A stretch of DNA of 64,000 nucleotides from positions 192,001 through 256,000 of the forward strand of contig CAVOID010000011.1 of the NCBI GenBank assembly GCA_963695875.1, in the 5' to 3' direction. A program made the position numbers and the translations under genes. Positions 4,357 to 51,266 of this stretch are shown here, piece by piece. The notes beneath the pieces were generated by a model that saw only the letters and a program-made list of their open reading frames with translations, searched no databases and had not been told where the DNA came from. This stretch comes from an uncultured delta proteobacterium (lineage in GTDB: Bacteria; Desulfobacterota; Syntrophia; Syntrophales; UBA2185). Numbering within the stretch: the first letter of the stretch is position 1; each line of letters opens with the position of its first letter.

Positions 4357-4432
4357 GCATTTCCTTCCATTGCCCATTTTCGCCTTTACGGGGGACTCGT
4401 AGGTGAACGAAACAAACGACCGCTGTTGCTAA

Positions 4433-4481
4433 CTTCCTGAAGTTTTGTTTTCCTAAGTCAACCCAGCCGTACAACATTTCA
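4433..4481 (+). repeat. Conserved 49-bp site, copy 1
   Basis: cttcc-tgaagttttg-N24-caacatttca. Confidence 0.85.
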
Positions 4482-4705
4482 TTTGAAAATAAACAAAAGT
4501 CGCACCATCAGTTTATACCCAAATTATTCACATAGGAATTTCACTGGTATACTGTCAGAAACCTCAGTCTATCCTTTGACCTTTATTGACTAAGGTATTT
4601 AGACTGCTGAAATCAGACTATGCCTGATGGATGGAACTAAGCAATAGATTCTATATATATTTATATTGCTCTTTCTGAATTTGAACAGAGTGGGGAGATG
4701 AATAT

Positions 4706-4999
4706 ATGATAAGAGTAATAATTGAAAGATACTGCAAGCCGGGTAAAGAAGCGCAACTCAGGGACTTGTTGAAAGAACTGAGAATGGCAGCAATGAGTCA
4801 ATACGGATACATCTCCGGCGAGACGCTTTGTGAATTAGATGATCCTTTACTCTTCATAGTCATTAGCACGTGGGCTACTCTTGAGGCTTGGAGAGAATGG
4901 CAGGTATCCAAGCGGCGCTTGCTAATAGAGCAAAGGATGGACTCTCTGATTACTACCGAGGAGAGGTTACGCATTTTGGCTTTTGATTATGAGATTTGA
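4706..4999 (+). CDS. Antibiotic biosynthesis monooxygenase (ABM) family protein
   Basis: KPGKE..L, QYGYISGETL, VISTWATLEAW pattern. Confidence 0.88.
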   Translation: MIRVIIERYCKPGKEAQLRDLLKELRMAAMSQYGYISGETLCELDDPLLFIVISTWATLEAWREWQVSKRRLLIEQRMDSLITTEERLRILAFDYEI

Positions 5000-5202
5000 T
5001 CTGGCACTTATAAGTGATGTTCTCAGCGCCATGTGCGGCAACGTAACGTAAGTATAATAAAAAAAGAGGATTACTATGCCAGTGTACAGAAAGGTGCGTA
5101 ACCGATCTATATTCATCTTATAAAATCTTACGGTATGGCGAAAGACATTTCATGTAGAGAAAAGAACAGTATGTCAACTTTTCAGAAAGGAGGCAACAAT
5201 TT

Positions 5203-5709
5203 ATGATTTCGGTAGATCTTTTAAAACAATACAAATTTTTCAAAGAGTTCAGTGAGGAACAGATCAAGAAACTGGCGGATATAGCTTCTGAAGAATCTTA
5301 TAGGGCTGGTTCTCAGTTATGGAAAAAGGGAGATCCGGCAAAAACCCTCTACCTGTTGGAAGGGGGAAAAGTTGTTCTGGTCATGGATGCTTACATGGGT
5401 ACTGCTAAACCCCCCATGCAGATCACTGTAGATATCGTCACAAAGGGAGACGCCATGGGATGGTCAACTGTCATTGAACCTTACGTGTACACTTTAGGAG
5501 CCCGATGTATTGATGATTCGAAAGTCATCGCCTTCGATGGAGCTAAACTCAGGGAGCTGCTAAGTAAAGACAGTACGTTAGGATATAATTTCATGCAAGC
5601 CACGGCAAAAGTAATAGCCACCCGTCTGACCCATACCGAAATTATTCTGGTTGGTGAGCGAGGACTCTCTATTTTGGATCGAATATTGAGTAAGAAGGAT
5701 AGATCATAA
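5203..5709 (+). CDS. Stand-alone cyclic-nucleotide-binding (CAP_ED) domain protein, no HTH
   Basis: FFKEFSEEQI..LA, KKGDPAKTLYLLEGGKV, GDAMGWS; AAGGAGG RBS. Confidence 0.88.
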   Translation: MISVDLLKQYKFFKEFSEEQIKKLADIASEESYRAGSQLWKKGDPAKTLYLLEGGKVVLVMDAYMGTAKPPMQITVDIVTKGDAMGWSTVIEPYVYTLGARCIDDSKVIAFDGAKLRELLSKDSTLGYNFMQATAKVIATRLTHTEIILVGERGLSILDRILSKKDRS

Positions 5710-5749
5710 AGGAGGTAGCCGCCATGTTTAAAGCTGCTACAAAAACGCA

Positions 5750-5935
5750 TCAACCGCAAATCTCGATGTCAACAAAAAACGATTATCCCCTAATAAAAAT
5801 AAAGGATGTAAATAAGAAGGTAAGGTTCAACCATATATTTTCATAAGAAAGAAATATTTTTAGGATTATTACCATTTTCTTAAAAATAATCCACATTTTA
5901 GGAAAAATATGAATTAACAAGTACACTCACTTATA
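5750..5935. repeat. Non-coding repeat B, copy 1 (direct repeat of 31815-32002)
   Basis: Shared blocks aaaaataaaggatgt.aataagaaggt, ttcaaccatatattttcataa, gattattaccatt. Confidence 0.85.
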
Positions 5936-6053
5936 CATACCCAAAAGGGATGGCGTGGAGGAAAGGCGTCTGAGACAGGCTTCCATATTGATGCCGGATC
6001 GTAAAACACCCTGCCAGATGTTCTGCGCTGTCTGCAGCGGGGAAGCCGTTTGC

Positions 6054-6605
6054 CTAGACCACTTCGCGATAGACGTCTGGATGGGGCCGAGAAATAACGA
6101 CAGAGTTTACCAGCAGGCCGCGTTCGGCGATCACGAGCTTGGCGGCCTGCGCGGCCGATTGAACTGCGGCGACATCACCGGTCATCGTGAAGTACGCCTT
6201 ACCACCAAGTGCCATTGCCAGGCGGATTTCCAACAGCGTCACATTTGCAGCCTTAGCTGCGGCGTCAGCCCCTTCCAGCAATGAGGCAACGCTGAATGAT
6301 TCTACAATTCCCAGTGCACCAACCAGTTCCGGCACTTGCGAACGGCCAAGAGCGGCGAAGACGTCGGCGTGAACGTTCGAAATGATGAATTTATCGATAA
6401 TACACCCGTTTGCCTCGATTACACCAGCCTCTACTGCGCGCTGCACGGCACCGACCGCGCCACCGATCAACACCATGTATTTGCCGGAGCAAATGCTGCG
6501 CGACAGGATGAGCTGGACGTTGGCCGCTTTCAGCATCACGTCGGCTACAGTAAAGCCGGCGGCGATGCTGGAGAGTTCAATTAAACCAATGGATTTCCCG
6601 TTCAT
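6054..6605 (-). CDS. pduT: BMC-T shell protein, PduT-like (Fe-S pore Cys)
   Basis: Tandem BMC domains; SICSGKYMVLIGG with conserved Cys; adjacent to pduS. Confidence 0.88.
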   Translation of the reverse strand: MNGKSIGLIELSSIAAGFTVADVMLKAANVQLILSRSICSGKYMVLIGGAVGAVQRAVEAGVIEANGCIIDKFIISNVHADVFAALGRSQVPELVGALGIVESFSVASLLEGADAAAKAANVTLLEIRLAMALGGKAYFTMTGDVAAVQSAAQAAKLVIAERGLLVNSVVISRPHPDVYREVV

Positions 6606-7921
6606 GCTTGCCTCGTCAAAATAATGAAGTTATCGTTTACCTCGGCGACGATCCCGGCAATCGGCGCATGGATGATCGCGCCCAGGTCCTTGTCGGAAAT
6701 CTGGCCCAACGGCTGCCCGATCGTGATCTCGTCGCCCTTTTTCACAATTGGCTTGTTCGGCACGCCTGCCGCTTGTTTCAGCGGCAGAATGAGTTGACGC
6801 GGTGTGACGGCGATGTCCTGCCACGGCGCGGGCACATCGTATTTCTCAAGGGCAAATTTTTTCATCAACATCTTGATCGGCACGCGCCGACCGTCGTGCA
6901 GCGGATGCGCTCTGGTCGGTGCTGGGCCGGTCCATCTGATGTTCGCGGCTCGCATTTCAGTTTTCGACGCATCACAAGCTTCCTTCGGGAAAAGTGATTC
7001 GGGGCAGGCATAGAGCGTACAAAGGCCGCACGCGCAGCAGTTTACTGCCATCTGATTCCAGTAACTCTTGTCGGTAGCGGTGAATGCCAGGCTGCGCATG
7101 ACCTGGTGCGGTTCGACTGCGTAGCCGAGCAGGTAACGCGGACATAACTCAGTGCAGTAACGGCATTGGTCGCAGGCTGACTTGCCGATACGCGATTTGA
7201 GCGGGTCGGGCTTGAGCTTGCGCTCAATGACAAAATGGCTGCGCGGCAGGATCACCGCACCGCTCGAGGTCTTGACGATGGGTGTGTCCAGGTCGTCGGT
7301 GGTCTGACCCATCATCAATCCGCCGACGCACAACACGGGGTCGCCGGTAGTCAGGCCGCCGGCGGATTCAATCGCCTCGCGGAACGTTGTGCCGATCGGC
7401 ACAGTGATCGTCACTGGATTTTTCACTGCCCCCGCCAGGGTGATAGTCTTCCGGGTAACCGGCATACCTTGGGCTGCGGCTGCGATGTTCGCCAGCGTCT
7501 CGACGTTGTTGACGACGATGCCGACCTGCAGAGGGATGCCCTGCGGCGGAATCAGCCGGCCAGTCACTGCGTTGACCAGCTCGTATTCGTCACCGGCGGG
7601 GTAGTAATCACCTAGCAGATGGATGCGGATGTGTGTGCCTTGACATGCGTCTCGGATGGTTTCGATGGCGCTCTTCTTCTTGGCCTTGATTCCAATGATG
7701 CCCTCGCTGGCGCCGACGGCGTCCATGACCAACTGCAAGCCTGCCACCACCTCCTCCGTTCTACGCTCTATGACGGCTGCATCCTTGTACAATAAGGGTT
7801 CACACTCGGCGCCGTTCGCAATAACGGTGTCGGCTTTGCCCGCCACCTTGACGTGTGCGGGGAATCCGCCACCGCCTGCGCCGACCACGCCGGCTTGCTT
7901 TACTTGTTCAACCAAACTCAT
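6602..7921 (-). CDS. pduS: Cobalamin reductase PduS (RnfC-like, SLBB, two 4Fe-4S)
   Basis: GVVGAGGGGFP, ANGAECEPLL, CDQCRYCTELCP and CCACGLCTLYACP. Confidence 0.92.
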   Translation of the reverse strand: MSLVEQVKQAGVVGAGGGGFPAHVKVAGKADTVIANGAECEPLLYKDAAVIERRTEEVVAGLQLVMDAVGASEGIIGIKAKKKSAIETIRDACQGTHIRIHLLGDYYPAGDEYELVNAVTGRLIPPQGIPLQVGIVVNNVETLANIAAAAQGMPVTRKTITLAGAVKNPVTITVPIGTTFREAIESAGGLTTGDPVLCVGGLMMGQTTDDLDTPIVKTSSGAVILPRSHFVIERKLKPDPLKSRIGKSACDQCRYCTELCPRYLLGYAVEPHQVMRSLAFTATDKSYWNQMAVNCCACGLCTLYACPESLFPKEACDASKTEMRAANIRWTGPAPTRAHPLHDGRRVPIKMLMKKFALEKYDVPAPWQDIAVTPRQLILPLKQAAGVPNKPIVKKGDEITIGQPLGQISDKDLGAIIHAPIAGIVAEVNDNFIILTRQA

Positions 7922-8080
7922 AGTACCGAATGCTTCCGTGAAACCCGCCGTATTTCAATGATGACCGGATCGTGGCAGTGAGATTTTGCGACCATAAAAC
8001 CGTTCTCAGCCGCCCATGCCCGACGCATCCTGCACGACAGAAAGGCGGAGATTTGCCGCCGAAAACGACGCCGTCGCGAC

Positions 8081-10775: not shown

Positions 10776-11370
10776 TCAATGCCTTCCTTTGGCTGGCGAT
10801 CTCGAAACAGCCATCAACTCATCCAAAACTTTTTTAATGGCACCTGCGACTGCCGCTGACCATGCCAGAACGAAGAGCAGGTCACTTAATCGATTGATAT
10901 AAACGATCAATTCCTCGTATGTTCCGGTGCTGCGATTGAGGCTTACGATCAGACGCTCAACCCGGCGGCACACGGAGCGAGCCAGATGGAGCGCAGCACT
11001 TTCCGGACAATCACCCGGAATTACAAAACCGCCGGGCATGCCGAACAAGTCAGTCATCTGATCAATCCAGTCCTCCAGCTTGTTTCACATCCTTTATGGT
11101 GATTCGATTTCCAAGTTGAGAAATCCGCTCTGCCGTCGAAGCCAACTCCGCACCAGCCACAAATAGATCTTTTTGAATAGCTCGAAGGATAGATCGCACA
11201 GATTCTTCCTGAATAAGGCTTCGAGCCATTCCGAGGTGAGATTGGAGTTCATCGAGCGCCCCATACGTGTTAACATGGAGGTCGTCCTTTTCGACAGTCT
11301 CTCCGCTCAAGAGTTTCGTCTGCCCTCGGTCGCCGAAACGAGTGTAGATTTTTCGCAAGACTTCAGCCAT
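10776..11370 (-). CDS. pduO: ATP:cob(I)alamin adenosyltransferase PduO, split by a +1 frameshift near 11085
   Basis: KIYTRFGDRGQT and YGALDEL in the first ORF; FVIPG, HLARSVCRRVER and YINRLSDLLF in the second. Confidence 0.9.
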
Positions 11371-25862: not shown

Positions 25863-26223
25863 AACCTTATTGCTCCTTCCGTTCCTTATACTCTAATCTA
25901 TTTAGGGGGAAGTGTTTCGTTTATATTAGCACAGAGGGCTATTAATTACAATCTTAAAAGGCAATATTAATCAAATGGTGGTACTCTATCGGTCAGTTAA
26001 TTTATTGGCATTTTTAAGAAATCGTCAATTATCTTAAAAATATTTGGCAAATAAACTATCAGTTTGAATGTTGATCGTAAACACAGAAGCAGTAGGCACC
26101 ATCAAAGACAGCATTTCTAAGTTACAAATCGTCAGTTCCAATTACCGGACCAGATCATTGATAACGGGTAGAAACATGCAAAGGTGGGACAGTTCATTTT
26201 CTGTTCATATAGAATCCGGCTTC

Positions 26224-26272
26224 CTTCCTGTACTGTTGTTTTTGGAATTTTCCTTCTGAATGCAACATTTCA
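26224..26272 (+). repeat. Conserved 49-bp site, copy 2
   Basis: cttcc-tgtactgttg-N24-caacatttca. Confidence 0.85.
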
Positions 26273-26369
26273 AACGCCAATCTTCAATTTAGGATTGAAA
26301 AATCAAGGCTATTTCCAGAGGCAAATTTTCCCTTGACTACCCTTGATGTAAGGAGTATTTTTCAACCAA

Positions 26370-26451
26370 TTGACACTCCTACTGTAGCTCATTAAACTAA
26401 TTATTATTCCTCCCGTAGCTCAGTAAACTAACCGCAGTTCAGTAAACCCAA
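26370..26451 (+). promoter_or_regulatory. Sigma70 promoter overlapped by three operator-like repeats
   Basis: TTGACA-17-TAAACT at 26370-26398; repeats gtagctcattaaactaa, gtagctcagtaaactaa, gcagttcagtaaacccaa. Confidence 0.65.
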
Positions 26452-26506
26452 TAACCTAACCCCTAACCTCAAGGGAATCCTTCATTTCGGAAAGGAGGTT
26501 GTCCAA

Positions 26507-27001
26507 ATGTCTGATCAAGTTTCCCGTGAAGAAATCCTGTCCCAACTTGACAAAAAAGTGAATAACTATTTCCTTCAATCCTTCAACTGCGCCCAATCTT
26601 GCTTTGCTGCCCTCCAGGAACAGTTCGGCCTCGATGGCGGCCCCATCCTCAAAGCCCTCACCCCGTTTCCCGGCATTGCCCTGCAAGGGGAGACTTGTGG
26701 CGCTGTGTCCGGCTCCATGATGGCCCTGGGGCTGGTCTTTGGGCGCGACAGGCTGGACGACTTACCGGGCATGCGTGCGGCGTTCGTTCCAGCGATGACC
26801 TTCTGCAAGCATTTTATGCAAGAGGTTGGCAGCACCCGCTGCGGCGACATCCTCGAAACGCAGTTTGGCAAGCGCTTCAACCTGACCGATCCGGCCCAGG
26901 TAGCCGAGTATCGTGCTGCTGGCGCGATTGAGAAATGCGGTGCAGTGACCCGTAAGGGCGTGCGCATCGCTGCCGAAATCTTGTTAGCACGGCCTGTGTA
27001 G
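26507..27001 (+). CDS. C-GCAxxG-C-C family putative redox protein
   Basis: NCAQS, TCGAVSG, GSTRC..I and terminal C. Confidence 0.88.
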   Translation: MSDQVSREEILSQLDKKVNNYFLQSFNCAQSCFAALQEQFGLDGGPILKALTPFPGIALQGETCGAVSGSMMALGLVFGRDRLDDLPGMRAAFVPAMTFCKHFMQEVGSTRCGDILETQFGKRFNLTDPAQVAEYRAAGAIEKCGAVTRKGVRIAAEILLARPV

Positions 27002-27178
27002 CCTTAATTAACCTAACAACCGAACATCTAACCTTTTGGAGTGTAGTATGAAAACGAGCTTCCGAAAGGTACCGATATGAAGCCTCCAAGGGGACAGCAA
27101 CGTCCCTTTGGGGGCCATTCCCGTGCGATCACAATACCTAAAGTTTTTATCAACAACAAGAAAAAGGAGGGTGACACG

Positions 27179-27621: not shown

Positions 27622-27670
27622 CTTCCTGTACTGTTGTTTTTTTAATTCGGCCACTCAATACGATATTTCA
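27622..27670 (+). repeat. Conserved 49-bp site, copy 3
   Basis: cttcc-tgtactgttg-N24-cgatatttca. Confidence 0.8.
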
Positions 27671-27798
27671 ATCAGTAATATTCTAAAAGACTGTAGAGCT
27701 CTATTTCAAAATGTGGTACAAGTTGTGGGGGCAGGTCCTTTAATTAAAATATAAATCAAAAATAGCAATATAAATAATCCTAATGTTGAGGTGAAAGC

Positions 27799-27963
27799 AT
27801 GCCAACGTATGAGTATCTTTGCGAAGCCTGCAAAAAAGAGTTTTCATTGATACAGAGTTTCAGCGAACATGATATAGGCAAAGCCACATGGCCGAAATGC
27901 AAAAGCAAGAAGGTGAAACAGCAGATATCCCTGTTTACGTCCAAGACCAGCAGGAAAAGTTGA
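27799..27963 (+). CDS. FmdB-family zinc ribbon protein (not in the ORF track)
   Basis: MPTYEYLCEACKKEF..WPKCKSKKV; third Cys replaced by Trp. Confidence 0.8.
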   Translation: MPTYEYLCEACKKEFSLIQSFSEHDIGKATWPKCKSKKVKQQISLFTSKTSRKS

Positions 27964-28002
27964 TTCGTATATTAATTGTTAGACTGAACATGGAGGCAAT
28001 CT

Positions 28003-28188
28003 ATGGACGGAAACGTGACTAGCACAAAAGAGAAAGAAATTATCGTTTTTTGCGAGAAACAAATCGCAAGGAAACTTTATAATAGAATAGACCTTTTGGA
28101 AAAATTAGTTTTTACTCTAAACGAAAAAGTTGAAAAATTAGAAGAATTAATAAAGATTAAAAATAAATTTACAGATTGGAAAGCTTGA
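28003..28188 (+). CDS. Small hypothetical coiled-coil protein
   Basis: GGAGG RBS, 61 aa. Confidence 0.5.
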   Translation: MDGNVTSTKEKEIIVFCEKQIARKLYNRIDLLEKLVFTLNEKVEKLEELIKIKNKFTDWKA

Positions 28189-28329
28189 CAATCTCGGTTT
28201 CACCCTTTGTAGGCGAAAGCAACTTTTTTAAATCGCCATCTTTCGGTTTGCTGGCTGCCCTACCGCCCCTTGTGCGGACCGGTGTTTCATTTCAGTTTTC
28301 TGCTAGGGCATATAGTAAAGCCTTGACCT

Positions 28330-28378
28330 CTTCCTGCAATGTTGATTTCCCAATTTTGCTCGTCCATTAAACCTTTCA
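28330..28378 (+). repeat. Conserved 49-bp site, copy 4
   Basis: cttcc-tgcaatgttg-N24-aaacctttca. Confidence 0.8.
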
Positions 28379-28488
28379 ATCATTAATCATTAAATTCGAT
28401 TTACAATAGAGCAGAACCACAAATGAAAATGTGATATAGAATATAAGAAGAGGTCAGTAAGAATAAAACCGGATAAAAATTAACCCTT

Positions 28489-29182: not shown

Positions 29183-29231
29183 CTTCCTGAAACTGTGTTT
29201 TTCTAATTCTGACAATACATACAATATATCA
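29183..29231 (+). repeat. Conserved 49-bp site, copy 5
   Basis: cttcc-tgaaactgtg-N24-caatatatca. Confidence 0.8.
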
Positions 29232-29465
29232 ATCGGTAATAAACAAAAGACCTTACACCTGAAGCAAACATCTCTTTAGCAACATCCTTTCTATTTACCA
29301 TTATCAATCAGCATTTTCGAAGTCTGTGGTAAGTATTCTCGAAGCCATGAATAAGGTTATTCCCGATTGTGGATAATTGTATGTTTATGTAGTCTTTATA
29401 TATTCAATCTATAAATTATGGTGGCAATTTAACAGGAGCTTTAGACATCAATAAGGAGGCTATTA

Positions 29466-31814: not shown

Positions 31815-32002
31815 TCAACCGTAAATCTCGCTTTCAAAAAAACAATTAACCCGTAAAAATAAAGGATGTGAATAAGAAGGTGTAAAATTCAACCATATAT
31901 TTTCATAAAAAAGAAATATTTTTAAGATTATTACCATTATCTTAAAGATAATCGGTATTCGTGAAAGAATTCTTGCAACACTTGTTAACACCTACACTTA
32001 TA
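31815..32002. repeat. Non-coding repeat B, copy 2
   Basis: Direct repeat of 5750-5935. Confidence 0.85.
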
Positions 32003-32019
32003 AGGCCTCCAGATGTCAA

Positions 32020-32543
32020 TAGATAAATTTATCCATCAACGAAATTTTTTTCTTCCGCTCTTTCAAATAACGAACCATCTGGCTATTGGCAGCAATTCTG
32101 ACTTTGTTTCAACATAGGCGTCGGGAGAATGATCCCGCACCATACACTTATAGAGGTTCAACTACCTATTCAATCTGCCCAGGGGAAAAGAGAGAGTCCG
32201 CCGGGCATCAGGCAGCTGCAAGGCGAAATCATCACCTTGCGACCTGGAAAATATACCGTACCCTCATGCCGTCCTAATCAAATAACGGGGTATGGGAATC
32301 ATCCCCAGTAAGTAGCAGGTTCGGTTGAGGAGCAGAACCTTTCCAACGAGCCAAAGAGCACGTTATGGAAAATTGTAGGAGCGGAACGGACCTCCAATCA
32401 AGTCAAGGGAATATCGGGTTTATTCGTCATATCATCGAATATGCGTTCATGGACGCAAGGGTTTTCTTCTCCCTCGATGCGGACACATGCTCGTACCCAT
32501 AGTTGTTCCATTAGGTGCTCGGGCTGATCCGTTCCCTCCATAA
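32020..32543 (-). ncRNA. Candidate bridge/seek RNA region of the IS110 element
   Basis: ~520-nt non-coding segment inside the IRs, downstream of the transposase. Confidence 0.55.
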
Positions 32544-33587
32544 TCATAGGCTTAACAATTTGTCTTGGTCGAAAGCCTCCTTGTTCTTGAGCATGAAATA
32601 TACGGCCCGTCCCAATTTATGGGCAAGGATAGACAGGGCTTTTGCTTTGCCGTGTTTCCTGGTAAGCCTGTCTACATATTTCTTTGCCGGATCATTGCTT
32701 TTGAGAAAGAAGACGGCGGCCTCGGAGAAGGCCCACTTGAGGTGAACGTTTCCTATTTTACTGCCGCCGGAGCCGCATTTTTTCCCATTGGATTCTTTGG
32801 CGCATTTTACGAGGCGGCTGTATGAGGCAAAGTCCTGCACACTGGCGAAGCGGCGGATATTTTCTATTTCGTACAGCATGATCAGGGCGATGATTTTTCC
32901 AACTCCCGGGATGGTCTGGAGTAAGGCATAGGAAACCGGGTCGTGGTTATTGGCCAGTTTAATGATGGATTTTTCGAGTTGCGATAAGATGCCATCATAG
33001 GTCCTGATCATTTCAATATCCACGGCAATGCTTTTCTGCACGGAAGGATGTTCAAATTGCTCGGCAATGCCGTTCCTGTTCTGATGTCTTGCGATGGGGC
33101 CAAAGGAATCAGGCAGGTTGTACTGGCTGTTGGTGTTCTGGATATGAGCGTAGAGTTCGGAGCGTTTTCTCATCAGGTGATTCCGGCGTCTCATGAGGTC
33201 ACGCGTGGCTCTCATCTTTGCTGGATATACATAGGCCATGGGGATCATGCCTCCTCTGAGGAGTGCGGCGATCTTTTGGGAGTCGATCTTGTCGTTTTTT
33301 GCTTTGCCGCCATGGATTGCCTTCATGTAGAGGGCATGTCCGAGGACAAAGGGAATGCCTTCGTTGTGGCAAAGATCGGCTACCCAGTACCAGGTGAAGA
33401 TGCATTCTACGGCAACGACGATATCCTCACGAAAGGGAGCGATGGCTTTGAGAAAGGCATCACGGTCGGTTTTCAGGTTGCGATGTTCCCTGATTTCTCC
33501 TTTTTCATCGAGGATGCAGATATACATTTTTCTTGTGTGTAGATCGATTCCGCAGTAATACTTGTGCTGATTAGTGTAAAATCTCAT
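32544..33587 (-). CDS. IS110 DEDD transposase/recombinase
   Basis: GIDLH, VAVE, KNDKIDS, TIPGVG, ESNGK, AHKLGRAVY. Confidence 0.95.
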   Translation of the reverse strand: MRFYTNQHKYYCGIDLHTRKMYICILDEKGEIREHRNLKTDRDAFLKAIAPFREDIVVAVECIFTWYWVADLCHNEGIPFVLGHALYMKAIHGGKAKNDKIDSQKIAALLRGGMIPMAYVYPAKMRATRDLMRRRNHLMRKRSELYAHIQNTNSQYNLPDSFGPIARHQNRNGIAEQFEHPSVQKSIAVDIEMIRTYDGILSQLEKSIIKLANNHDPVSYALLQTIPGVGKIIALIMLYEIENIRRFASVQDFASYSRLVKCAKESNGKKCGSGGSKIGNVHLKWAFSEAAVFFLKSNDPAKKYVDRLTRKHGKAKALSILAHKLGRAVYFMLKNKEAFDQDKLLSL

Positions 33588-33849
33588 GGGGCTTCCTCCT
33601 TCTTCTGGTATTATTTGGCCCTACTCAATTCCAAATATACCATGCTTTGGGGGAGGCCTTAAATAGTATCAAGTCTTTGCTCTGAGGTATCTTTCTTTTT
33701 TAATGATTACGGAAAGAAAGGGTGAAGACAAATATGCAATAATGGAATAAGGATTACAAGAAGAAACGGGTTAGAAAAGTGGTTATTTCTTCCGCTTACT
33801 AATGTTGACAGCCTTTATGTGATAAGCTGGCAAAATTCTGGGGTGACAT

Positions 33850-34119: not shown

Positions 34120-34602
34120 CTACCATTCATAGTCGTTCCGCATATCCAACGCGGCATCCTTGCTCAGCCTCCTTCCGTATTCCGTCAGCCTGGAGCTGAC
34201 AAGAGCTGCCAGATTCTTCATGAATACATAGCCTATATGCGGAACCTGATCGAAAAGCTTAAACAGATCCGCCCTTCTCAGGTAGATATCCTCCGTATTT
34301 TCCGCGCAGATCGCCGTTGCCGTATATTGGTAGGGTTCCACTAGGGCGGACCATCCTAAGGCTTCTCCCCCCACGGCGGTATGGATCTTTACATGTATAG
34401 TCGGGGCCTCGAAGTGCTTGACAACAATGTCCACTTTACCATTCCGGCAAAGATGCAACTCGCTCGCCGGAGTTCCCTGCAGAAAGCAGACGGCTCCTTT
34501 CTTCAGGCTTCGCTCCTGGCACAGTGGTACAATCCTGTTCAACTCGTCATCATTCAAGCCATGGAATAGATTGAATGCTTTCAACTCCTGAATTGCCGTC
34601 AT
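34120..34602 (-). CDS. Stand-alone cNMP-binding domain protein
   Basis: LFHGLNDDEL, GEALGWSALVEPYQYTATA. Confidence 0.87.
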   Translation of the reverse strand: MTAIQELKAFNLFHGLNDDELNRIVPLCQERSLKKGAVCFLQGTPASELHLCRNGKVDIVVKHFEAPTIHVKIHTAVGGEALGWSALVEPYQYTATAICAENTEDIYLRRADLFKLFDQVPHIGYVFMKNLAALVSSRLTEYGRRLSKDAALDMRNDYEW

Positions 34603-34669
34603 ATTTTCCTCCTTTCCTTGGGGTGCATTAATTGGCTGCCGTTTGAAACTTTAAAGATGGAACGGCTGT

Positions 34670-35089
34670 TCAGATGACCTCCTTGTAACTCTTAATAAGC
34701 CGTGTAGCGATGACCCCTGCCAGACGCTTCATGATCGTCAGACCCTCGGCAGGATGCTTTTGAAACACGCGCATCAGGCGATCTGCGTCAATTTTTATCA
34801 CCCTGCTTTCCTTTACACATTCCGCTTTAGCCGTGTACAGATTCGGCTCTACAAGTGATGACCAACCAAATACAGAACCTGTCTTATCTACTGAAAAGGA
34901 GAGTTGTTTATCCCTCTTAACGGTAAGATCAAGATCTCCTTCTTCAAGAATATAAAGATAATCTGCAAAATCGCCTTCTCGAAACAATACATGTCCTGCC
35001 GGGTGACTTTCCTGAGTGACGAGTTCTGCAATTTCGTCAATGATATGTGAGGGAATCCCTTTGAAAAGCTCTACTTCTTGTATGAACAT
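34670..35089 (-). CDS. Stand-alone cNMP-binding domain protein
   Basis: LFREGDFADYLYILEEG, GSVFGWSSLVEP. Confidence 0.87.
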   Translation of the reverse strand: MFIQEVELFKGIPSHIIDEIAELVTQESHPAGHVLFREGDFADYLYILEEGDLDLTVKRDKQLSFSVDKTGSVFGWSSLVEPNLYTAKAECVKESRVIKIDADRLMRVFQKHPAEGLTIMKRLAGVIATRLIKSYKEVI

Positions 35090-35127
35090 CGTAGTTACCT
35101 CCTTTATGATCTATCCTTCATCACGTC

Positions 35128-35607
35128 TCATTCAAGGGTAGACAGTCCCCTCTCACCAACCAATATGATCTGGGTGTGGGTCAGACGGGCGGCTATTACC
35201 CGCGCCGTGGCCTGCATAAAATTAAGTCCTAAAGCACCGTCTTGAATTAGTAGTTCCCTGAGTTTCTCTGCATCAAAAGCAATGGCCTTTGAATTGTCAA
35301 TGCACAGGGCCCCTAAGGTATAAGCGTAAGGTTCAACAACAGCGGACCATCCCATGGCATCGCCCTTTGTGACGATATCCACGGTCACCTGCATGGGGGG
35401 TTTAGCGGTGCCCATGTAACTCTCCATGAGCATGACAAATTTTCCCTCTTCCACGAGATAGAGTTTTTTTGCCGGATCACCTTTCTTGTAAACCTGGGCA
35501 CCTGCTTTAAACGATTCTTCAGAAGCGAAACCTGACAGTTTCTTTAAATCACCCTCATCAAAACCTTTAAAAAACGCGAATTGTTTTAAGAGATCTGCGG
35601 AAACCAT
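35128..35607 (-). CDS. Stand-alone cNMP-binding domain protein, close paralog of 5203-5709
   Basis: Shares YMGTAKPPMQ.TVDIVTKGDAMGWS and IILVGERGLS. Confidence 0.88.
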   Translation of the reverse strand: MVSADLLKQFAFFKGFDEGDLKKLSGFASEESFKAGAQVYKKGDPAKKLYLVEEGKFVMLMESYMGTAKPPMQVTVDIVTKGDAMGWSAVVEPYAYTLGALCIDNSKAIAFDAEKLRELLIQDGALGLNFMQATARVIAARLTHTQIILVGERGLSTLE

Positions 35608-35714
35608 GTGTGTTACCTCCTTTCAGAAAAAGTGAGATAATTTTTTGGCTCTGTTGCTTTTTACCGGTTTCTTAATGTCGCAGAGTACGCCGTCTTAATG
35701 TAAACATAATCTGC

Positions 35715-35924
35715 TCAGGCACGTGCATGATACTTGAATGAGATATTGAGCCTTACCCTGAAGGATGTTATTTTTCCATTATCAACAGTAACATCCTGTT
35801 TTACAACCTCCGCTATTCTAAGATCTTCGAGAGTCTTGGAAGCAGTTGCCAGGGCGCTTTGGGCAGCATCTTCCCACGATGTCGGGCTGGTCCCCACGAT
35901 GTCAATAATACTGTACACTGACAT
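35715..35924 (-). CDS. Dodecin family protein
   Basis: MSVYSIIDIVGTSPTSWEDAA..FRVRLNISFKY. Confidence 0.9.
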   Translation of the reverse strand: MSVYSIIDIVGTSPTSWEDAAQSALATASKTLEDLRIAEVVKQDVTVDNGKITSFRVRLNISFKYHARA

Positions 35925-36230
35925 AATAATCCCTCCTTTTTTCTCAATTGTTCTATTTCCTGGAAATTTATTAGAGATCACCACAAAACCGGCTTACTGA
36001 TTTCCTACTGTACTAAGGTAATAATTCTTTATCCTTTGCCTGATAAGAACTCGCTTTTTTGAAACATATTTATCTGTCCTATAAAAATATCTTATAATAT
36101 TCGCATTGTGAATATTACCAATCTAAACGCCTTATTTGCTATTATATTAACTGCCTACTTTTCATGGTTCTTGGGATAGTGTCGGCGTGTGCAATCCATG
36201 GTTTTTACTTATAAACATCAGTACAAATGA

Positions 36231-36665
36231 TCAGCTCTCCGGCCTTGTAGGTTGAGAGATAAAGGTTTGCGGATCCACCTCGTATACGCCACTGCAAATG
36301 ATCAAGTTATCTACTTTCTTAAAATACACAGTCTTAGGCAGAACTTCTTTTGTTGTCGGGTGGTGCCATTTGTATTTTACCCAGCCGCTACCTTCTTTAT
36401 TGGCAGTGTCGAGGATTTCTTTGATAAACCTCTTGCCGTCAATATCTTTGAGGTCAGCGAAGTCATGCCCCACAAACCTTTCATTAACTCCGTGTGCAAG
36501 CATAATCCCTTTGCTGTCCAATACAAAAATATACAATTCGCCTTGGACAAAATGTCCGGTTGGATTCGAATATTCAGCCAAAGCGATTTTTTTACCGGAA
36601 TTTTTATAAAAGACTACAGCCTTATCTACCCATTCCTCGGCATTTTCTTTGAATTGTTTAAGCAT
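36231..36665 (-). CDS. Stand-alone single Cache_2 domain protein
   Basis: LYIFVLD..GIMLAHG..DLKDIDGK..GSGWVKYKW..K..Y..ICSGVY. Confidence 0.88.
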   Translation of the reverse strand: MLKQFKENAEEWVDKAVVFYKNSGKKIALAEYSNPTGHFVQGELYIFVLDSKGIMLAHGVNERFVGHDFADLKDIDGKRFIKEILDTANKEGSGWVKYKWHHPTTKEVLPKTVYFKKVDNLIICSGVYEVDPQTFISQPTRPES

Positions 36666-36757
36666 ATTGCACCTCCTTTTTTATTTTAAAAGGATAAGCA
36701 AACTTGGTTACTCATTAATTACCTCTTCATTTACACTACCGACATTATCCCACAGTA

Positions 36758-36844
36758 TTATTCTATATCCGCCAGTTTCTTGATCTGTTCCTCACTGAAC
36801 CCTTTGAAAAAAGTGTATTGCCTTAAGAGATCTACCGAAACCAT
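36758..36844 (-). pseudogene. Truncated cNMP-domain paralog of 5203
   Basis: MVSVDLLRQYTFFKGFSEEQIKKLADIE then stop. Confidence 0.8.
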
Positions 36845-36882
36845 GAATCGTTACCTCCTTTCTGAAAAGGTGATATACTTGT

Positions 36883-36980
36883 AGTACTCAGAGAGTCCAT
36901 CCTTTCCTCTATTAGCAAGCGCCGCTGGGACACTTGCCATGTTCTCTAAGCTTCAAGAGTAGCCCATGTGCTGATGACTT
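36883..36980 (-). pseudogene. ABM remnant, paralog of 4706-4999
   Basis: Reverse complement matches 4858-4955 (gggctactcttga..gcggcgcttgctaatagag..aaggatggactctctga). Confidence 0.8.
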
Positions 36981-37032
36981 TATGTTTGTTTATCTTACCG
37001 TCCTTTCCTGCCTATATTCGGAGAACCCACTA

Positions 37033-37455
37033 TTAAACACAGCTGAACTTTAAGGGGTGAACAACATGCTTATAGACGCCGCTGCAGATAATTAGGTCAT
37101 CGACCTTCTCAAAATACACAGTTTTTGGTAGCACCTCTTTGGTTACCGGGTTGGACCATTTATATTCCACCCACCCACTACCTTTAGTGTTGGCGGTGTC
37201 GAGCATCTCTTTGATAAAACTCTTTCCATCAGAATCCTTGAGGTTACTGAAATCCTCTCCTACAAATCTTTCATTGACGCCGTGTGCAAGCATGGTCCCC
37301 TTGGGATTCAACACAAAAAGATACAGCTCGTCTTGGACAAACCGTCCATTAGGATTTGTGTATTCTGCCAAAGCGATTCTTTTACCGGAAGCTCGGTAAA
37401 AAGCTATGGCATCTTTCACCCAGCGCTTTGCATCTTCTTTATCTTGTTTACCCAT
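37033..37455 (-). CDS. Stand-alone single Cache_2 domain protein, paralog of 36231
   Basis: Same motifs; no signal peptide or TM. Confidence 0.88.
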   Translation of the reverse strand: MGKQDKEDAKRWVKDAIAFYRASGKRIALAEYTNPNGRFVQDELYLFVLNPKGTMLAHGVNERFVGEDFSNLKDSDGKSFIKEMLDTANTKGSGWVEYKWSNPVTKEVLPKTVYFEKVDDLIICSGVYKHVVHPLKFSCV

Positions 37456-37655: not shown

Positions 37656-37880
37656 ATATAGAATCTACTGCCAAGTGTCGTCCATCAGGCATAATCTTAT
37701 TTCAGCGGTCTAAATGCCTTAGTCAATAGAAGTTAGAGGATAGACTGAGAGTTCTGACAAGATACCTATGAAAATCCTATACGAATAATCGTGGGTATAA
37801 ACTGACGGTGTGACTTTTGTTTATTTTCACATGAAATGTTGTATGGATGGGCGGATTTATAAAAACAAGATTTCAGGAAG
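37656..37880 (-). repeat. Inverted paralog of 4433-4655, including 49-bp site copy 6 (37832-37880)
   Basis: Colinear ~225-bp match (gaaaataaacaaaagtc, cagtttataccc, ctcagtctatcct, tattgactaagg, tatgcctgatgga). Confidence 0.88.
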
Positions 37881-39569: not shown

Positions 39570-39738
39570 GCGAAGCGTTCCGCCCCAGGGGTTATGACAT
39601 TGCACGCCATCGCACCGCTTATCAAGCGGGACTTGGCGATGAATCCGGTGGCGAGCGTAAACACCTTCGCTTGCTGCGGGGTAAGCGAGCGAAGCGGAGA
39701 ACTTCAATTATTTCATAGATAAATATATAGATAAATAT

Positions 39739-45488: not shown

Positions 45489-45517
45489 TGCAGAGATCAG
45501 ATAAAAGGAGGGTACTT

Positions 45518-46157: not shown

Positions 46158-47419
46158 TGATCTTTACCCAAAAAAGTGGACACCCAGTTAAGCTTCACAT
46201 GCTTTCTTTTCGAACTCAACAGGAGAACAATAATTAAGCGAGGAGTGTCTTCTGACCCGGTTATAAAATACTTCGATGTATTCAAAAACACTTCCGTGAG
46301 CCTCCCGTCTCGTCCGATATTTCTCAAAGTAAATGAGCTCCGTTTTCAACGTATGAAAGAACGATTCCATTATGGCATTGTCGTAACAATTACCCGACGA
46401 ACTCATGCTCTGTAAAAAACCGCATCGATCCATCAGATCCCGAAAGGCATAACTGGCATACTGAGTCCCCCGATCGGAATGGAATATCAGACCAGCATCG
46501 GGTTTCCTCTCCCTGAGCGCCTTGTGCAGGGCATCAGCAAGAATTCCATGATTTAACCTGTCACTCATCGACCATCCAACAATCTGCCGGTTGAAGGCAT
46601 CAAGGATCGCTGCCAGATACATCCAGCCTTCCTTTGTCCAGATAAAGGTAATGTCAGAGAACCAGACCTCGTTGGCAGCATCTGTCGAAAACTTCCGCTT
46701 CAGAAGATTCTCAGCCACCAGCAGATCGTGACGGGATTTCGTCGTTGCCTGTGAACCTGCGTTTTGTTTTTGCCTTTATCCCATTCTCTTTCATCAGCCG
46801 GGCAATGCGATTCTTCCCGCACTGAATCCCGTTATCCCTGAGTTCCGCTGTGATCCGGGGACTTCCATAGGTCCCACGACCCCTTATGTAAGCCTGCTGA
46901 ATATACAACAGCAACCGCTCATTCTCCTTCTGGCGGAAACTTGTGTTATGCTTTGCCCATGAATAATAACCGCTCCTGGATACATCCAACACCTGGCACA
47001 TCTTCTTCACCGCAAATTCGGAACGGTGTTTGTCAATGAACTGATATCTTACCTTGGGTGCTTTGAGAAGATGGCCAAGGCTTTTTTTAAGATCTCCTTC
47101 TCCTCCTTTAAATCTTCATTCTCCCGCTGTAACCGTCGTATCTCTTCCTCCGGGGACTTCATATGACCCTTCCCAGGAAAGGCATGCTCCATATCCGCTC
47201 GATATTTGCGCCTCCACTGATGAAGTACATTCGGATGAATATCCAAATCCTTGGCTATGTCTCTCACAGAACGCTTACCCTCATCCATCAAGCGAATAGT
47301 CTCATACTTGAACTCCCGATCAAAATACCTCTTGTCCTTACTCGCAACCATGACACACCCCCATCTTCTCTTTAATAACTGAAACTCTTCGGTGTGTCCA
47401 CTAAATCGGGGGAAGACCA
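46158..47419 (-). mobile_element. IS3-family element (orfA 47049-47351; orfB ~46188-47040 with an extra frameshift near 46755)
   Basis: IRs TGATCTTTACCCAAAAAAGTGGACAC and TGGTCTTCCCCCGATTTAGTGGACAC; WFSDITF, HSDRGTQY, DNAIMESFF. Confidence 0.93.
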
Positions 47420-47749: not shown

Positions 47750-48142
47750 ATGAACCGAAAATCATATTACAAATGGTTATTCATTATTGGTGCCCTATGG
47801 AACTGGGGAGCAGCCGTATTATTTTCATTTTGGCATGATCCAATTTTTGCCCGGTTCGGTTTGAAGGCTCTAAATTATCCCGCCGTCATGCAACTGGCTA
47901 TGGCGTTGGTGTTTGCTTTCGGTATCGGGTATTACTGGGTTTCAAAAGACCTCTCTACGAATCATGACATCGTAAAGTTGGGAATCATCGCCAAGACACT
48001 CGTGTTTGTAGTGCTGTTTTACCATTACCTTGTCGGGAACATTCCTCTGGCACTGGCTTCATGTGGTGTGGTTGACCTTATTTTTGCGATTCTTTTCATG
48101 GAATTTTTAAAGAGTGTAGCTAGTGTTAAGGTATGTTCATAG
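47750..48142 (+). CDS. Hypothetical four-TM membrane protein
   Basis: Four hydrophobic segments; AGGAGG RBS. Confidence 0.75.
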   Translation: MNRKSYYKWLFIIGALWNWGAAVLFSFWHDPIFARFGLKALNYPAVMQLAMALVFAFGIGYYWVSKDLSTNHDIVKLGIIAKTLVFVVLFYHYLVGNIPLALASCGVVDLIFAILFMEFLKSVASVKVCS

Positions 48143-48376
48143 GTGTAATAGTTGCCAGTAAAAAAGTGGAATGGCCCCTGTATGTTTCTGGTACACATAT
48201 TCCCTGTGTAAAAGTACAAGCAAATAAAAAAGGAGGACACGAACGTGAAGAAAAATAATTTACTGCTCATTGCGATTGCGTCATTTCTTTTACTGCCGGT
48301 GATTGGTCAGGCGAGGGCGATTTTAGGGTATCTGGTTTATCGTAACAAAAAACGTAAAGAAAAAGATCACGGGGAG

Positions 48377-48495
48377 TGACCTGCCCACCAAATATGTACC
48401 TACCACATTAAAAGTTAGAATTCTCTGTTTTTCAATTGTTTCTATTTGAAATAGTGCATATGGAAGGAAATATCATTTTCATTGATAACAGGAAG
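48377..48495 (-). repeat. 49-bp site copy 7 (48447-48495) followed by an IS3-type end (48377-~48420)
   Basis: cttcc-tg-N32-cactatttca; same site plus IS-end arrangement as 27622-27738. Confidence 0.7.
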
Positions 48496-48684
48496 AACGA
48501 GATAAAAAGGAAGTTGTTGAGTTCACCTACGAGTCCTTGAACCCGGCTTAACGATAAAAGTGAAGATTACCGATACAAAGCTCGTATTCTCGACTTGATT
48601 GTTATATTCGATTTGCAATCACCCATTTTCATACATTTTTCTTGATATAACGATAGGTCAGTGTATTATAATTGCAGGCATCGA

Positions 48685-48828
48685 ATGAACCGTCCGTATC
48701 GACCTGCTTTGGGAATCGATGCAGCATTAGATGAGATTGCCAAGAACAAGAGTATACTCTATGACCCTGAAGTAGTGGATGCATGCTTGCAGATTTTCAA
48801 TGAGAAGGGCTATAAGCTGGTAGATTGA
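48685..48828 (+). pseudogene. HD-GYP phosphodiesterase C-terminal remnant
   Basis: RPYRPALGIDAALDEI..LYDPEVVDACL. Confidence 0.75.
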
Positions 48829-48987
48829 CGATTACCATCGGAGAGAGAGCAGCTGTTTCAAAATCTTGGGATTCTCCATTTCAGGAAGGTCGTGAATAAG
48901 ATACAATCAATCGGATTTACTGATATTATTTGTCAACCATGTGGCGTCCCAAAAATGAGTATCACGTTGGATTAGAAAGGAGTCGAT

Positions 48988-49185
48988 ATGCATAATAGCA
49001 TCATAAGGGTAACAGGGATAGTATTGCTGTGCGTAATGGCGCTGTTATGTCAGTCATGCGCAACTTTAAAATGCGAAACAGAAAGACAATCATGTAAATG
49101 GGATTGTCCACAGACAGTGGTAATAAAGCAAGCTTGCGAACAAGCGTGTAACATTTCATATGACATTTGCAGAAGCAAAGAATGA
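48988..49185 (+). CDS. Small Cys-rich lipoprotein
   Basis: Signal peptide ending LCQS-C; C-x6-C-x3-C and C-x3-C-x6-C. Confidence 0.65.
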   Translation: MHNSIIRVTGIVLLCVMALLCQSCATLKCETERQSCKWDCPQTVVIKQACEQACNISYDICRSKE

Positions 49186-49809
49186 AAGAGGAATTGGGTC
49201 GCATTGGAACAACCCGACATTTGAGATGCGCACACTTTTTTACCGTAAGGCAGGATTAATGGATCTCAGCGTAGGGTAAGGTGAGCATCTGAACACCGGT
49301 AATTAAACATGATCACTTAATCTCTGCCATGCCCGTGTTCGCTGCATACTTAGGTTGTGCTTTGCCATATTTGGTAGCCGGTGTAATAACTCTGCGTTAC
49401 AGACGGAAAGAAAGCAATTCTGCAAATCACTTGGCGGATCTCTGTTGATTTGGCCCTTTTCGGCATATTTCAGACATGCCTCACCGGCAAATTTCGAAGG
49501 CGTCATGCCTGGATATAGTCATCCCAAAAATATTCTGGATCCCGATAGAGGTGATCGTCGTTCATTTCGAATTGAAACGGAACATGAGCGAACTGATTGG
49601 GAGAAACAACACTAACAGGAAGGAAGCGGTAAATAGGGTAGCGTTGAGTTGACCTACAACTAAATGATTTTAGAAAGCTGCTACTCCGGATTTCTATTTG
49701 AAAGTTACAATGCTCGTAGAAGACGGTGGTGTGGGTGGTTGAAGAAAAAATGGAGATACTGAGAAATAAAACAATGGTTGAGGTTAGAATTGATTTCCTC
49801 ATGGGAAGT

Positions 49810-50067
49810 TCATCTATTGGCGTCTCGAATATTCCTTTCTCTTAAATCTGGGTGAACACACTTATTCCAGTCGTAAATCGTATTGACCCCATTTCTTTTG
49901 CCGACACCGCATTCCATGTTGTGATCGCAATCTATATCTACGATAGCTCTTCCATCTACTTTATCTGTTAAAGCGTTTCTATGAAGGAAAACTTGACGAG
50001 TAATCGTCACTTCAGCACCTATTTTTGAACACTCAAATTCTTCAAATTCGATATCGCTTTCTGGCAT
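49810..50067 (-). CDS. Hypothetical Cys-containing protein
   Basis: 85 aa, four Cys. Confidence 0.55.
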   Translation of the reverse strand: MPESDIEFEEFECSKIGAEVTITRQVFLHRNALTDKVDGRAIVDIDCDHNMECGVGKRNGVNTIYDWNKCVHPDLRERNIRDANR

Positions 50068-50409
50068 TTTTTATACTTTCGCTTCTTTCAACACCAAGAC
50101 GTTTCCAATCTCATCTCGGAACACTTCATCTGTTAAGGTTGTGACCCTTTACTGCGTTCCTTGCAAGAATTACCCTTTTTTCTGTTTGGATCTTATAAGT
50201 CTTTATTGCATCTCCAATCTTTAAAGCCGAAGATTCAACACCATCCGCCAAATTCAATTCATCATATTCAAAATAAATTAATTCTTTAATATCGAACTTC
50301 CAAGATTCTTACATGCCTTTAACCACTACTTATAAAAGTATTTCTCCACAAATCGTTCATTTTCTGCCACTTCCAATTTGGGGTTGGATTGTTGGCTGTC
50401 TGAGGAGGG

Positions 50410-50925
50410 TCATTTATTTGGCCAGTCAGAAAATGCTGGTGACGCAATAATTGTAACTTGCGGAGGTGTGGCTACTTGAAGTTCGTGACCTGGGGGCAGT
50501 GCGGCACCGAATAAGAATTCCTTGCCGTCTTGTGATTGATAAAGGGGTTTCACATATTGTTGGCCTATGGGGAAATTGAAAACTGAAGTGGTAGTGGGAT
50601 GTGTAGATGATGCGGAAATGATGACGTAGTTGGGATGTTCGGTGTCAGTATTGCGAGCTTCGAGAGTGTTCTGGTTCTTGCCGAGGAGTCTATCTGATAG
50701 AGAAGGCGTTTTTAAATCAACCTCAAACCATGCAACTTTTGCATGAAGGTGTGAGCCAGGATTCGCTAAAGAAGCGGTCAAAAGGGCAAAAAAGACGCAG
50801 GCAACGAAAGTGAAGGTAAGAATCAGGGGGGGTGATTTTTTATAAACGGCTGAGGCAAGGCATATGAATGATACGATAAAACATAGAGAAAAGAGCACGG
50901 TGATGGCAGACAACGATGGCATCAA
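50410..50925 (-). CDS. Hypothetical two-TM membrane protein
   Basis: Two N-terminal TM helices; AAGGAG RBS. Confidence 0.6.
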   Translation of the reverse strand: MMPSLSAITVLFSLCFIVSFICLASAVYKKSPPLILTFTFVACVFFALLTASLANPGSHLHAKVAWFEVDLKTPSLSDRLLGKNQNTLEARNTDTEHPNYVIISASSTHPTTTSVFNFPIGQQYVKPLYQSQDGKEFLFGAALPPGHELQVATPPQVTIIASPAFSDWPNK

Positions 50926-51076
50926 ATCTCCTTTGATGTTGCAAGGTGAGATTGTGAAACATCACGTTTTTACGTAAGCATGCTCTAACTATGCATGGCA
51001 TCTGATGCATAGTTTAATTCGTCAGAAATATTCTGACTACTTCTGCACGCGTTTTTTCATTATCACGATTTCAAAA

Positions 51077-51125
51077 AGAAATCTATTATGAAAAAGGAAA
51101 TCAAACGATTACAGCTTTCAGGAAG
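51077..51125 (-). repeat. Conserved 49-bp site, copy 8 (degenerate)
   Basis: cttcc-tgaaagctgt-N24-atagatttct; adjacent 51135-51176 matches 28237-28279 upstream of copy 4. Confidence 0.55.
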
Positions 51126-51266
51126 AAGCAAAGTGTCGGCACAAGGGGCGGTAGGGTAGCCAACAACCGAAAGATGCAATTGATAAAGAAATATTATGGT
51201 AGGTGGTCAGATTGAAATTATGAAAAAATATTTAAACATTTACAAAAATAGTGATATACGGAAAAC

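Follow-up and report, generated by a model that had tools for sequence, protein, structure and literature searches.

What kind of sequence recurs, between flanks that seem to have been shuffled, along a 64,000-nucleotide stretch of an uncultured delta proteobacterium of the order Syntrophales (GenBank assembly GCA_963695875.1, contig CAVOID010000011.1, positions 192,001 to 256,000 of the forward strand; hereafter the window), and could strand exchange at the recurring sequence have done the shuffling? The original prediction, which described eight copies of a "49-bp site", proposed that it had. Following this site through its source genome (G000, a sediment bacterium, 2.86 Mb, 82.6% complete) and through related genomes, we find that it corresponds to the core of a modular repeat dispersed through the intergenic DNA of the Syntrophales. 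The sequences on either side of the first seven bases of this core, CTTCCTG, have been combined with one another independently many times, and this heptamer is consequently a preferred joining point.

The core of the repeat and its distribution

The core consists of the heptamer CTTCCTG, 37 nt whose length is fixed in most copies, and then TTTCAA-N3-GTAATC. The consensus of the aligned copies is CTTCCTG.AAt..tGttTt....a.Ttt.c...t..AT.CAa.aTTTCAa..ggTAATcatta; positions 8-18 differ between classes of copies, and the whole, of some 60-65 bp, is T-rich and unstructured, with T-tracts that are phased. An nhmmer profile built from 26 copies and run over the source genome gave 116 matches at E <=10, of which 61 are full-length at E <=0.05, while the exact pattern occurs there 23 times, against once for a reversed control. 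Three of the matches in the window come in addition to the eight copies known before (48888 and 49622, and a degenerate copy at 33768, all on the minus strand). Comparison by eye with consensus sequences for sigma-54, sigma-28, sigma-32, ECF and Bacteroidota-type promoter motifs, and for CRP/FNR, Fur and LexA-type sites, produced none that fits both the sequence and the spacing.

The repeat is found well beyond its source genome. Between 5 and 41 copies of the exact pattern are present in every one of the 18 family members sampled, and 73 in a genome of another family (G029); additionally, 47 of the order's 151 genomes have a strict 58-nt pattern, for which the control gave 0 in every genome. 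Copy number differs greatly among close relatives. For instance, four genomes of one genus, all at least 98% complete, have 85 (G051), 23 (G134), 6 (G032) and 2 (G110) exact matches, where the 6 of G032 are to be read against 2 for the control and the 2 of G110 are unlike members of the family.

Single-stranded folds of nine window copies are unstable, with z-scores of -2.16 to +1.45, and the partial dyad of the core pairs in 219 of 384 cells (57%), against 196.5 (51%) in shuffles. A palindrome was considered, as some subclasses look palindromic (TGAAATGTTGT..ACAACATTTCA), and was rejected because pairing across copies barely exceeds that of shuffles and the folds are unstable. No Rfam family matched the window at gathering scores, nor did any match 20 site-bearing loci of G007, a complete genome from another genus, at E <=0.1. 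These results bear on the idea that the core acts as RNA, either as a conserved 5′ portion of mRNA leaders or as a small-RNA family, for instance with CUUCCU as an anti-Shine-Dalgarno sequence, so that modules would start at the transcription start. The co-orientation of the site with the genes downstream, the sharp beginning of homology at one base and a weak A/T pattern at -11 to -7 before the heptamer all agree with this idea; the lack of Rfam matches, the folds (z from -2.2 to +1.5) and the near-random dyad do not, and neither do the TANNNT hexamers upstream, which number 14 where 9.3 are expected, nor the good promoter matches that lie downstream of the core. We consider an RNA element improbable.

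Composite arms and the junction at CTTCCTG

The sharing of flanks that had been described for the copies of the window is borne out in all four instances. The 16-mer GGACTCGTAGGTGAAC is present exactly twice, at 4393-4408 (+) and 48521-48536 (-), with a chance expectation of 0.03 and two matches in 0 of 100 shuffles, and its end does lie 24 nt ahead of copy 1 (CTTCCTG at 4433) and 25 nt ahead of copy 7 (48495, on the minus strand). Between copies 1 and 6, the similarity covers the site and the ~175 nt that follow (4433-4656 vs 37880-37656, 83.6% over 225 nt), and copies 4 and 8 have an upstream block in common (28237-28279 vs 51176-51135, 90.7% over 43 nt), which is out of register, as it ends ~50 nt before copy 4 and ~10 nt before copy 8. 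The block of ~38 nt shared downstream of copies 3 and 7 (AATGT..GGTACA..GGGCAGGTC, +88 to +117) is also real, but its description as an IS3-type end has to be abandoned: the sole IS3 copy, at ~46165-47400 and thus ~1 kb from copy 7 and the shared block, has inverted ends (AGTGGACAC / GTGTCCACT) that differ from it.

The comparison of the two arms, which had been proposed as a check, was made with the 61 copies of the source genome, using 400 nt on each side and counting an arm when its homology reached at least 20 nt (on the right, beyond the core). Left and right arms do not group the copies in the same way, and the switch points do not scatter far from the site. Collinear homology was found in 37 pairs of copies, 10 of which share the left arm, 14 the right arm and 13 only the core, while no pair shares both arms. 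Homology of right arms has its 5′ limit at -13, -5, -4, 0 (five times), 13 (twice), 40 (twice), 70 and 181, and that of left arms has its 3′ limit at -97, -17, -5, 0, 1, 1, 6, 6, 10 and 13. Most switch points are therefore no further than 13 nt from the heptamer, and the conserved 3′ box is rarely one of them.

Individual junctions point to the same place. A module that carries a presumed zinc-ribbon gene abuts the heptamer with its 3′ end in the four copies examined, each of which has a different right side, and contigs from other samples that match the module of copy 2 lose the match exactly at 26222-26224. Among the metagenome contigs of four runs, which drop rare variants, none joined a site directly to the next site. 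G007, which has 33 sites, shows the same arm pattern, and the two genera even share arms: one right arm is 97.5% identical between G000 and G007 from position 0, exactly the C of CTTCCTG, to 241, and a left arm matches at 91% identity over -380 to +10. Neither target-site duplications nor, with one possible exception (C7:343xx), left boxes that lack a core and could be called "attR-like" were found, as all blocks of the left box named L1 are followed by a full core. This 40-nt box (GTAGGTG..CCTTTTTATCTCGTT) precedes ~10 copies whose right arms differ.

Additionally, some of the sequences that had been noted as flanks are optional boxes of the repeat family itself. This is the case of a YAGGTG box, located at -66 to -21 in 14 of the 61 copies, and of the TGTGGTA..GGCAGGTC box, which recurs at the same right offset (as TGTGGTA..GGGCAGGTC) in copies of G051; a further noted flank is the 3′ end of the repeated zinc-ribbon module. 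In G051 and G122, 8 of 13 aligned copies have at least part of a composite left region, formed by a second GTAATC box at about -130, a GTAGGTG box and an optional 35-nt segment, and in G051 the left states combine freely with two right classes. Taken as a whole, the pattern fits a heptamer that is the true joining point of a proliferating modular element.

Expression modules, rival explanations and known systems

What is joined at the heptamer appears from the position of the copies. An open reading frame (ORF) that is co-oriented with the site starts 40-700 nt downstream of 46 of the 61 copies and a divergent one is found in 21, while 12 copies fall within a crudely called ORF. The copies form the upstream edge of the leaders of single accessory genes that are unrelated to one another and have no common theme: an ABM monooxygenase, a GCAxxG protein, an acyltransferase, a rubrerythrin and Cache domain proteins, and further downstream genes such as PIN_8, AIPR, AhpC, patatin, TetR, GNAT, FBPase and PAS kinases, among others, with no transposases in this further set. 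Copies are often found in co-oriented runs. In the window, those at 26224, 27622, 28330 and 29183 are on the plus strand and those from 48495 to 51125 on the minus strand; C7 of the source genome has eight minus copies followed by five plus copies, and runs of five to seven copies are present in G051.

Promoter-like sequences are concentrated downstream of the core. TATACT is found in 11 leaders and 1 upstream flank, ATAACT in 10 and 0, and matches to TTGACA-17-TATACT lie at +87 to +230. In one module with four copies, homology begins at the heptamer and ceases at the ribosome-binding site. Another leader (C11:135773 vs C7:13382, 90% over 241 nt) precedes an alpha/beta-hydrolase gene in one place and a 3-dmu-9_3-mt-family gene in the other. 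Coding by the leaders was rejected, as they have stops in all frames, and so was coding through the left box on the reverse strand, where the short ORFs, read by eye, are inconsistent.

These features suggest a mechanism in which each copy would mark the upstream edge of a self-contained expression module. In the examples studied, this is the core, followed 90-230 nt later by a sigma-70-like promoter and then by a 5′ leader and ribosome-binding site. Such a module would be placed before one accessory gene, often with copies stacked in co-oriented arrays, and CTTCCTG would be the preferred point at which modules attach to unrelated upstream DNA, while the family multiplies and moves within and between genomes. 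The data show directly the composite anatomy of the copies, their junction, their proliferation and the near-identity across genera. We infer that the joining could be a sequence-specific reaction on double-stranded DNA, either recombination or one-ended transposition, acting on mobile expression modules, a proposal to which we give about even chances; the core may serve as an upstream promoter or insulator element as well.

Two places where a single gene stands between a leader and the next gene deserve mention in their own right. In contigs from three other samples, the leader of copy 2 is joined directly to a GYD-domain gene, without the GCAxxG gene (window 26428-26469 and 27018-27048), which in the window (26507-27001) is located between direct AACCTAAC repeats at 26453 and 27011; a single ORF has accordingly been inserted into the leader or lost from it. 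Similarly, the ABM monooxygenase gene is found between the leader of copy 1 and a cNMP-binding gene (window 4633-5138), and at a paralogous locus (G000:C7 8616-8573) the same leader runs straight into the cNMP-binding gene.

Among the concepts already described, the closest is that of the putative mobile promoters (PMPs) of Nijveen, Matus-Garcia and van Passel (2012), which are recognised by an identity of 80% or more along 50 nt or more upstream of genes that are not paralogous and whose mode of movement was stated as unknown; Correia, ERIC and REPIN elements are mentioned in the same work as carriers of promoters (PMC3575422). The two leaders compared above reach these values, as does the leader of copy 2 with C7:27027 (84% over 246 nt). 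The repeat resembles PMPs in that very similar non-coding regions stand upstream of unrelated genes, both within a genome and between genera. By contrast, many leader families have here one common 60-bp core at their 5′ end and one exact junction word, and they form a repetitive family, with up to 85 copies, in co-oriented arrays. Literature searches that combined Syntrophales names with repeat terms yielded nothing on such an element, and the parts seen of a comparative paper on the Smithellaceae hold nothing on promoters, integrases or cassettes.

BIME/REP, ERIC and Correia elements are dispersed and intergenic, with short conserved boxes in variable combinations, and some have promoters or IHF-like sites. 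The repeat described here is likewise dispersed, intergenic and a mosaic of short boxes but, unlike them, it has no terminal inverted repeats, no stable palindrome and no associated Y1 transposase, and it is strictly oriented with respect to genes. A miniature inverted-repeat transposable element of the type with terminal inverted repeats was rejected because the right-arm homologies end variably (+48 to +293), at points where the core has no inverted copy, and REP/REPIN elements with RAYT or IS200/IS605 ends because there is neither a palindromic hairpin nor a link to Y1.

Integron cassette arrays also consist of co-oriented, single, unrelated accessory genes with a repeated site and a switch at a fixed point of it; in the present arrays, however, the site is 5′ of the gene, each unit has its own promoter, and there is no hairpin and no link to IntI. 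The integron integrase (NCBIfam TIGR02249) exceeds the cut-off in 9 of the 31 relatives, among them the two genomes of the same genus (G001:C462:37947-38900 and G002:C182:36185-37135; 372 and 364 bits, cut-off 265), and it is not over cut-off in G000 or in the site-rich G007, G013, G014, G016, G017 and G029. Neither in G001 nor in G002 is there a site near intI. The Y1 transposase was found in 22 of the 31, in a manner unrelated to site counts, and not in any of those six site-rich genomes. A hairpin site used as single strand, of the attC type or of the REP/IS200 type, on which IntI or a Y1 (RAYT) transposase would act, might be supposed from the cassette-like arrays of small unrelated genes and from the true integron integrases of the genus, but the core has no predicted hairpin, neither enzyme accompanies the sites, and the site is 5′ and not 3′ of the ORF (46/61). 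On these grounds an attC site was rejected, and we regard the hairpin explanation in general as very improbable.

Xer-dependent dif-like modules, such as those of Acinetobacter plasmids, are gene modules bounded by short sites that host recombinases reshuffle. The modules described here are equally bounded by short sites, but their heptamer lacks conserved flanking binding arms. The heptamer region could nevertheless be a crossover spacer for host XerC/XerD, which would exchange the DNA on both sides: the switch lies inside an invariant 7-bp word, like an overlap region, and the only tyrosine recombinases of G007, with its 33 sites, are two Xer-like proteins. We judge this hardly likely, as the sequences around the heptamer are not conserved as Xer binding arms are and Xer is universal, yet many families of the order lack sites. 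Two 11-bp arms around a 6-8 bp spacer could not be recognised, with little information at -20 to -1 and variable positions 8-18, which speaks against a Xer/dif-type site. A dif-type consensus matched no more often than its control and so supplied no dif site with which to compare the core.

Other candidates fared no better among the relatives. A 230-aa tyrosine recombinase that adjoins the site at C5:2408 has close homologues in only 5 of 31 genomes, the distributions of IS91 and of serine recombinases do not match that of the site, and IS110 was not found in G122, which has 59 sites, and was found in G110, which has none. A broader proposal is that the arrays represent a new type of gene cassette, independent of integron integrases, whose complete units (core, promoter, accessory gene and sometimes a terminator) would be inserted, exchanged and stacked through a site-specific reaction at the double-stranded CTTCCTG, by the host Xer pair or a novel recombinase; we find it doubtful.

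IS110 and tyrosine recombinases are met near the repeat in another way. Each of the three cases examined has an IS110-family element whose end lies 29-34 nt beyond a GTAATC box of the repeat (window 31982-33675 with 33700-33768; L181, in G000:C6, at ~2423-2521; and L182, in G007, at ~2420-2517). The cases span two IS110 subfamilies and two genera, which suggests that IS110-family elements insert by preference next to the repeat. The 322-aa transposases of G000:C6 and G007 are ~92% identical by eye, and their DNA 91%. Additionally, at ~107900-109900 of G000:C11 (L005), three tandem tyrosine recombinase genes of the recombinase-in-trio type, the first apparently split, are flanked by two cores and two solitary GTAATC boxes.

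Several observations weigh against a sequence-specific joining reaction. No tested recombinase or transposase family tracks the distribution of the site among the relatives, and the recombinases of the searched families in G007 amount to the two Xer-like proteins and one IS110. The bases from -20 to -1 are unconserved in most copies; breakpoints fall also at +40, +70, +92 and the ribosome-binding site; the left box and the core stay joined in some copies, with one pair from the two genera that runs through the junction (-41 to +143, at 76%); and, of the eight copies of G051 and G122 with the composite left region, five have it in full and share the sequence from -135 to +75. The evidence for promoters is weak, as the mean scores, 14.3 downstream and 13.5 upstream, differ by a small gap, given without a significance test. 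Finally, the GTAATC box stands alone at ~19 intergenic places of the source genome, a behaviour expected of a protein-binding motif. Of the mosaic attributed to strand exchange at or near the site, the clustering of switches at the heptamer stands. Exchange by a site-specific enzyme is not established, because the site has neither a hairpin nor an inverted core, the sequence before the heptamer is not conserved in most copies, no recombinase family among those searched follows the sites, some of the flanks are boxes of the same family, and breakpoints lie inside leaders too.

A serious rival is a purely regulatory one, possible in our opinion but not probable, in which a lineage-specific protein (an activator, a nucleoid-associated protein or an insulator) binds the core before the promoters of accessory genes. 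The mosaic would then result from ordinary duplication and from short-homology or illegitimate recombination, with the heptamer as the best microhomology. This would account for the orientation fixed relative to the downstream gene, the two conserved boxes at fixed spacing with phased T-tracts, the sigma-70-like promoters downstream, the breakpoints elsewhere in leaders, the solitary GTAATC boxes, which stand after terminators, and the failure to find a recombinase among the families searched. By contrast, a range of 2 to 85 copies within one genus is unlike a stable regulon, the non-coding arm that is almost identical in two genera starts at the exact first base of the heptamer, and the 3′ box, although equally conserved, is rarely a switch point. 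Nor is the site kept before orthologous genes: none of the 8 relatives with an orthologue of the acyltransferase gene that follows copy 4 has a site upstream of it (in G002, of the same genus, homology with G000 begins ~40 nt ahead of the ATG, and a different gene lies before that), and 86 of 87 related loci scanned lack a site, the remaining one having a weak match.

The occurrence of dozens of promoter/leader modules with one terminal core and one joining word, one module being near-identical in two genera, suggests a way of moving promoter-bearing gene modules. The genes of the arrays, of stress, sensing and defence types, suggest in turn a route by which uncultured syntrophs could gain or rewire accessory genes. 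The question is testable, as the cis sequence is defined to the base and related genomes exist with and without the repeat; were the core only the binding site of a regulator, it would still be a new order-wide regulatory motif.

Features of the window and neighbouring observations

The copies, boxes and modules of the window are collected in the table. The small gene of the repeated module at 27739-28329 is presumably of the FmdB zinc-ribbon type, judging from its motif, and the region of copy 1 (4420-4726) is 89.3% identical to C5.

Table. Copies of the repeat and associated boxes and modules, in window coordinates
Feature	Position	Strand	Remarks
Copy 1, left box (YAGGTG box)	4393..4408	+	Optional; exact 16-mer common to copy 7
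Copy 1, core (CTTCCTG, 37 nt, TTTCA, box)	4433..4497	+	nhmmer E 3.6e-09
Copy 1, right module	4433..4656	+	Homologues: copy 6, C5:109794, C7:8803
Copy 2, core	26224..26288	+	nhmmer E 5.9e-11
Copy 2, right module (leader)	26224..26469	+	84.1% identity to C7:27027-26786 over 246 nt, from the heptamer exactly
Copy 3, core	27622..27686	+	nhmmer E 3.2e-09
Right box TGTGGTA..GGGCAGGT after copy 3	27712..27738	+	Same box at same offset in G051 copies
Zinc-ribbon gene module	27739..28329	+	92.7% and 95.0% identity to two C7 copies; includes block 28237-28279; 3′ end adjoins copy 4
Copy 4, core	28330..28394	+	nhmmer E 1.4e-09; upstream of acyltransferase gene
Copy 5, core	29183..29247	+	nhmmer E 4.4e-08; upstream of rubrerythrin gene
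Degenerate copy	33700..33768	-	nhmmer E 0.44; IS110-family element (31982-33675) inserted 29 nt past GTAATC box
Copy 6, core	37816..37880	-	nhmmer E 2.5e-11
Right box TGTGGTA..GGGCAGGT after copy 7	48378..48407	-	Shared with copy 3
Copy 7, core	48431..48495	-	nhmmer E 5.1e-07
Left box L1 (GTAGGTGAAC..CCTTTTTATCTCGTT) before copy 7	48496..48536	-	40-nt block, recurring
Additional copy	48824..48888	-	nhmmer E 0.0064
Additional copy, 51-nt spacing variant, L1-type left box	49557..49622	-	nhmmer E 0.0019
Copy 8, core	51061..51125	-	nhmmer E 1e-04
Fragment of zinc-ribbon module 3′ end, before copy 8	51135..51176	-	90.7% identity to 28279-28237

Other features of the window were observed in passing. 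At 39640-39712 there is a separate, GC-rich repeat of ~73 nt, unrelated to the core, of which the genome has at least 17 more copies (81-90% identity) and which can form a hairpin (-27.3 kcal/mol, z -1.4). Small paralogous genes for stand-alone cNMP-binding proteins (four) and single-Cache proteins (two) are found at 34120-37455 and 5203-5709, in a cluster that has rearranged duplicate segments in common with 4858-5728.

Two genes of the window are interrupted. The cobalamin adenosyltransferase gene of a propanediol-type microcompartment operon (10776-11370) is divided between two neighbouring ORFs, of 102 and 93 aa, that cover the two halves of the Pfam domain, possibly because of a frameshift or an assembly error. 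At 55509-57882, an ORF with a beta-lactamase fold and the first part of NamZ overlaps the next ORF, which has the rest, and the pair looks like a frameshifted fusion gene.

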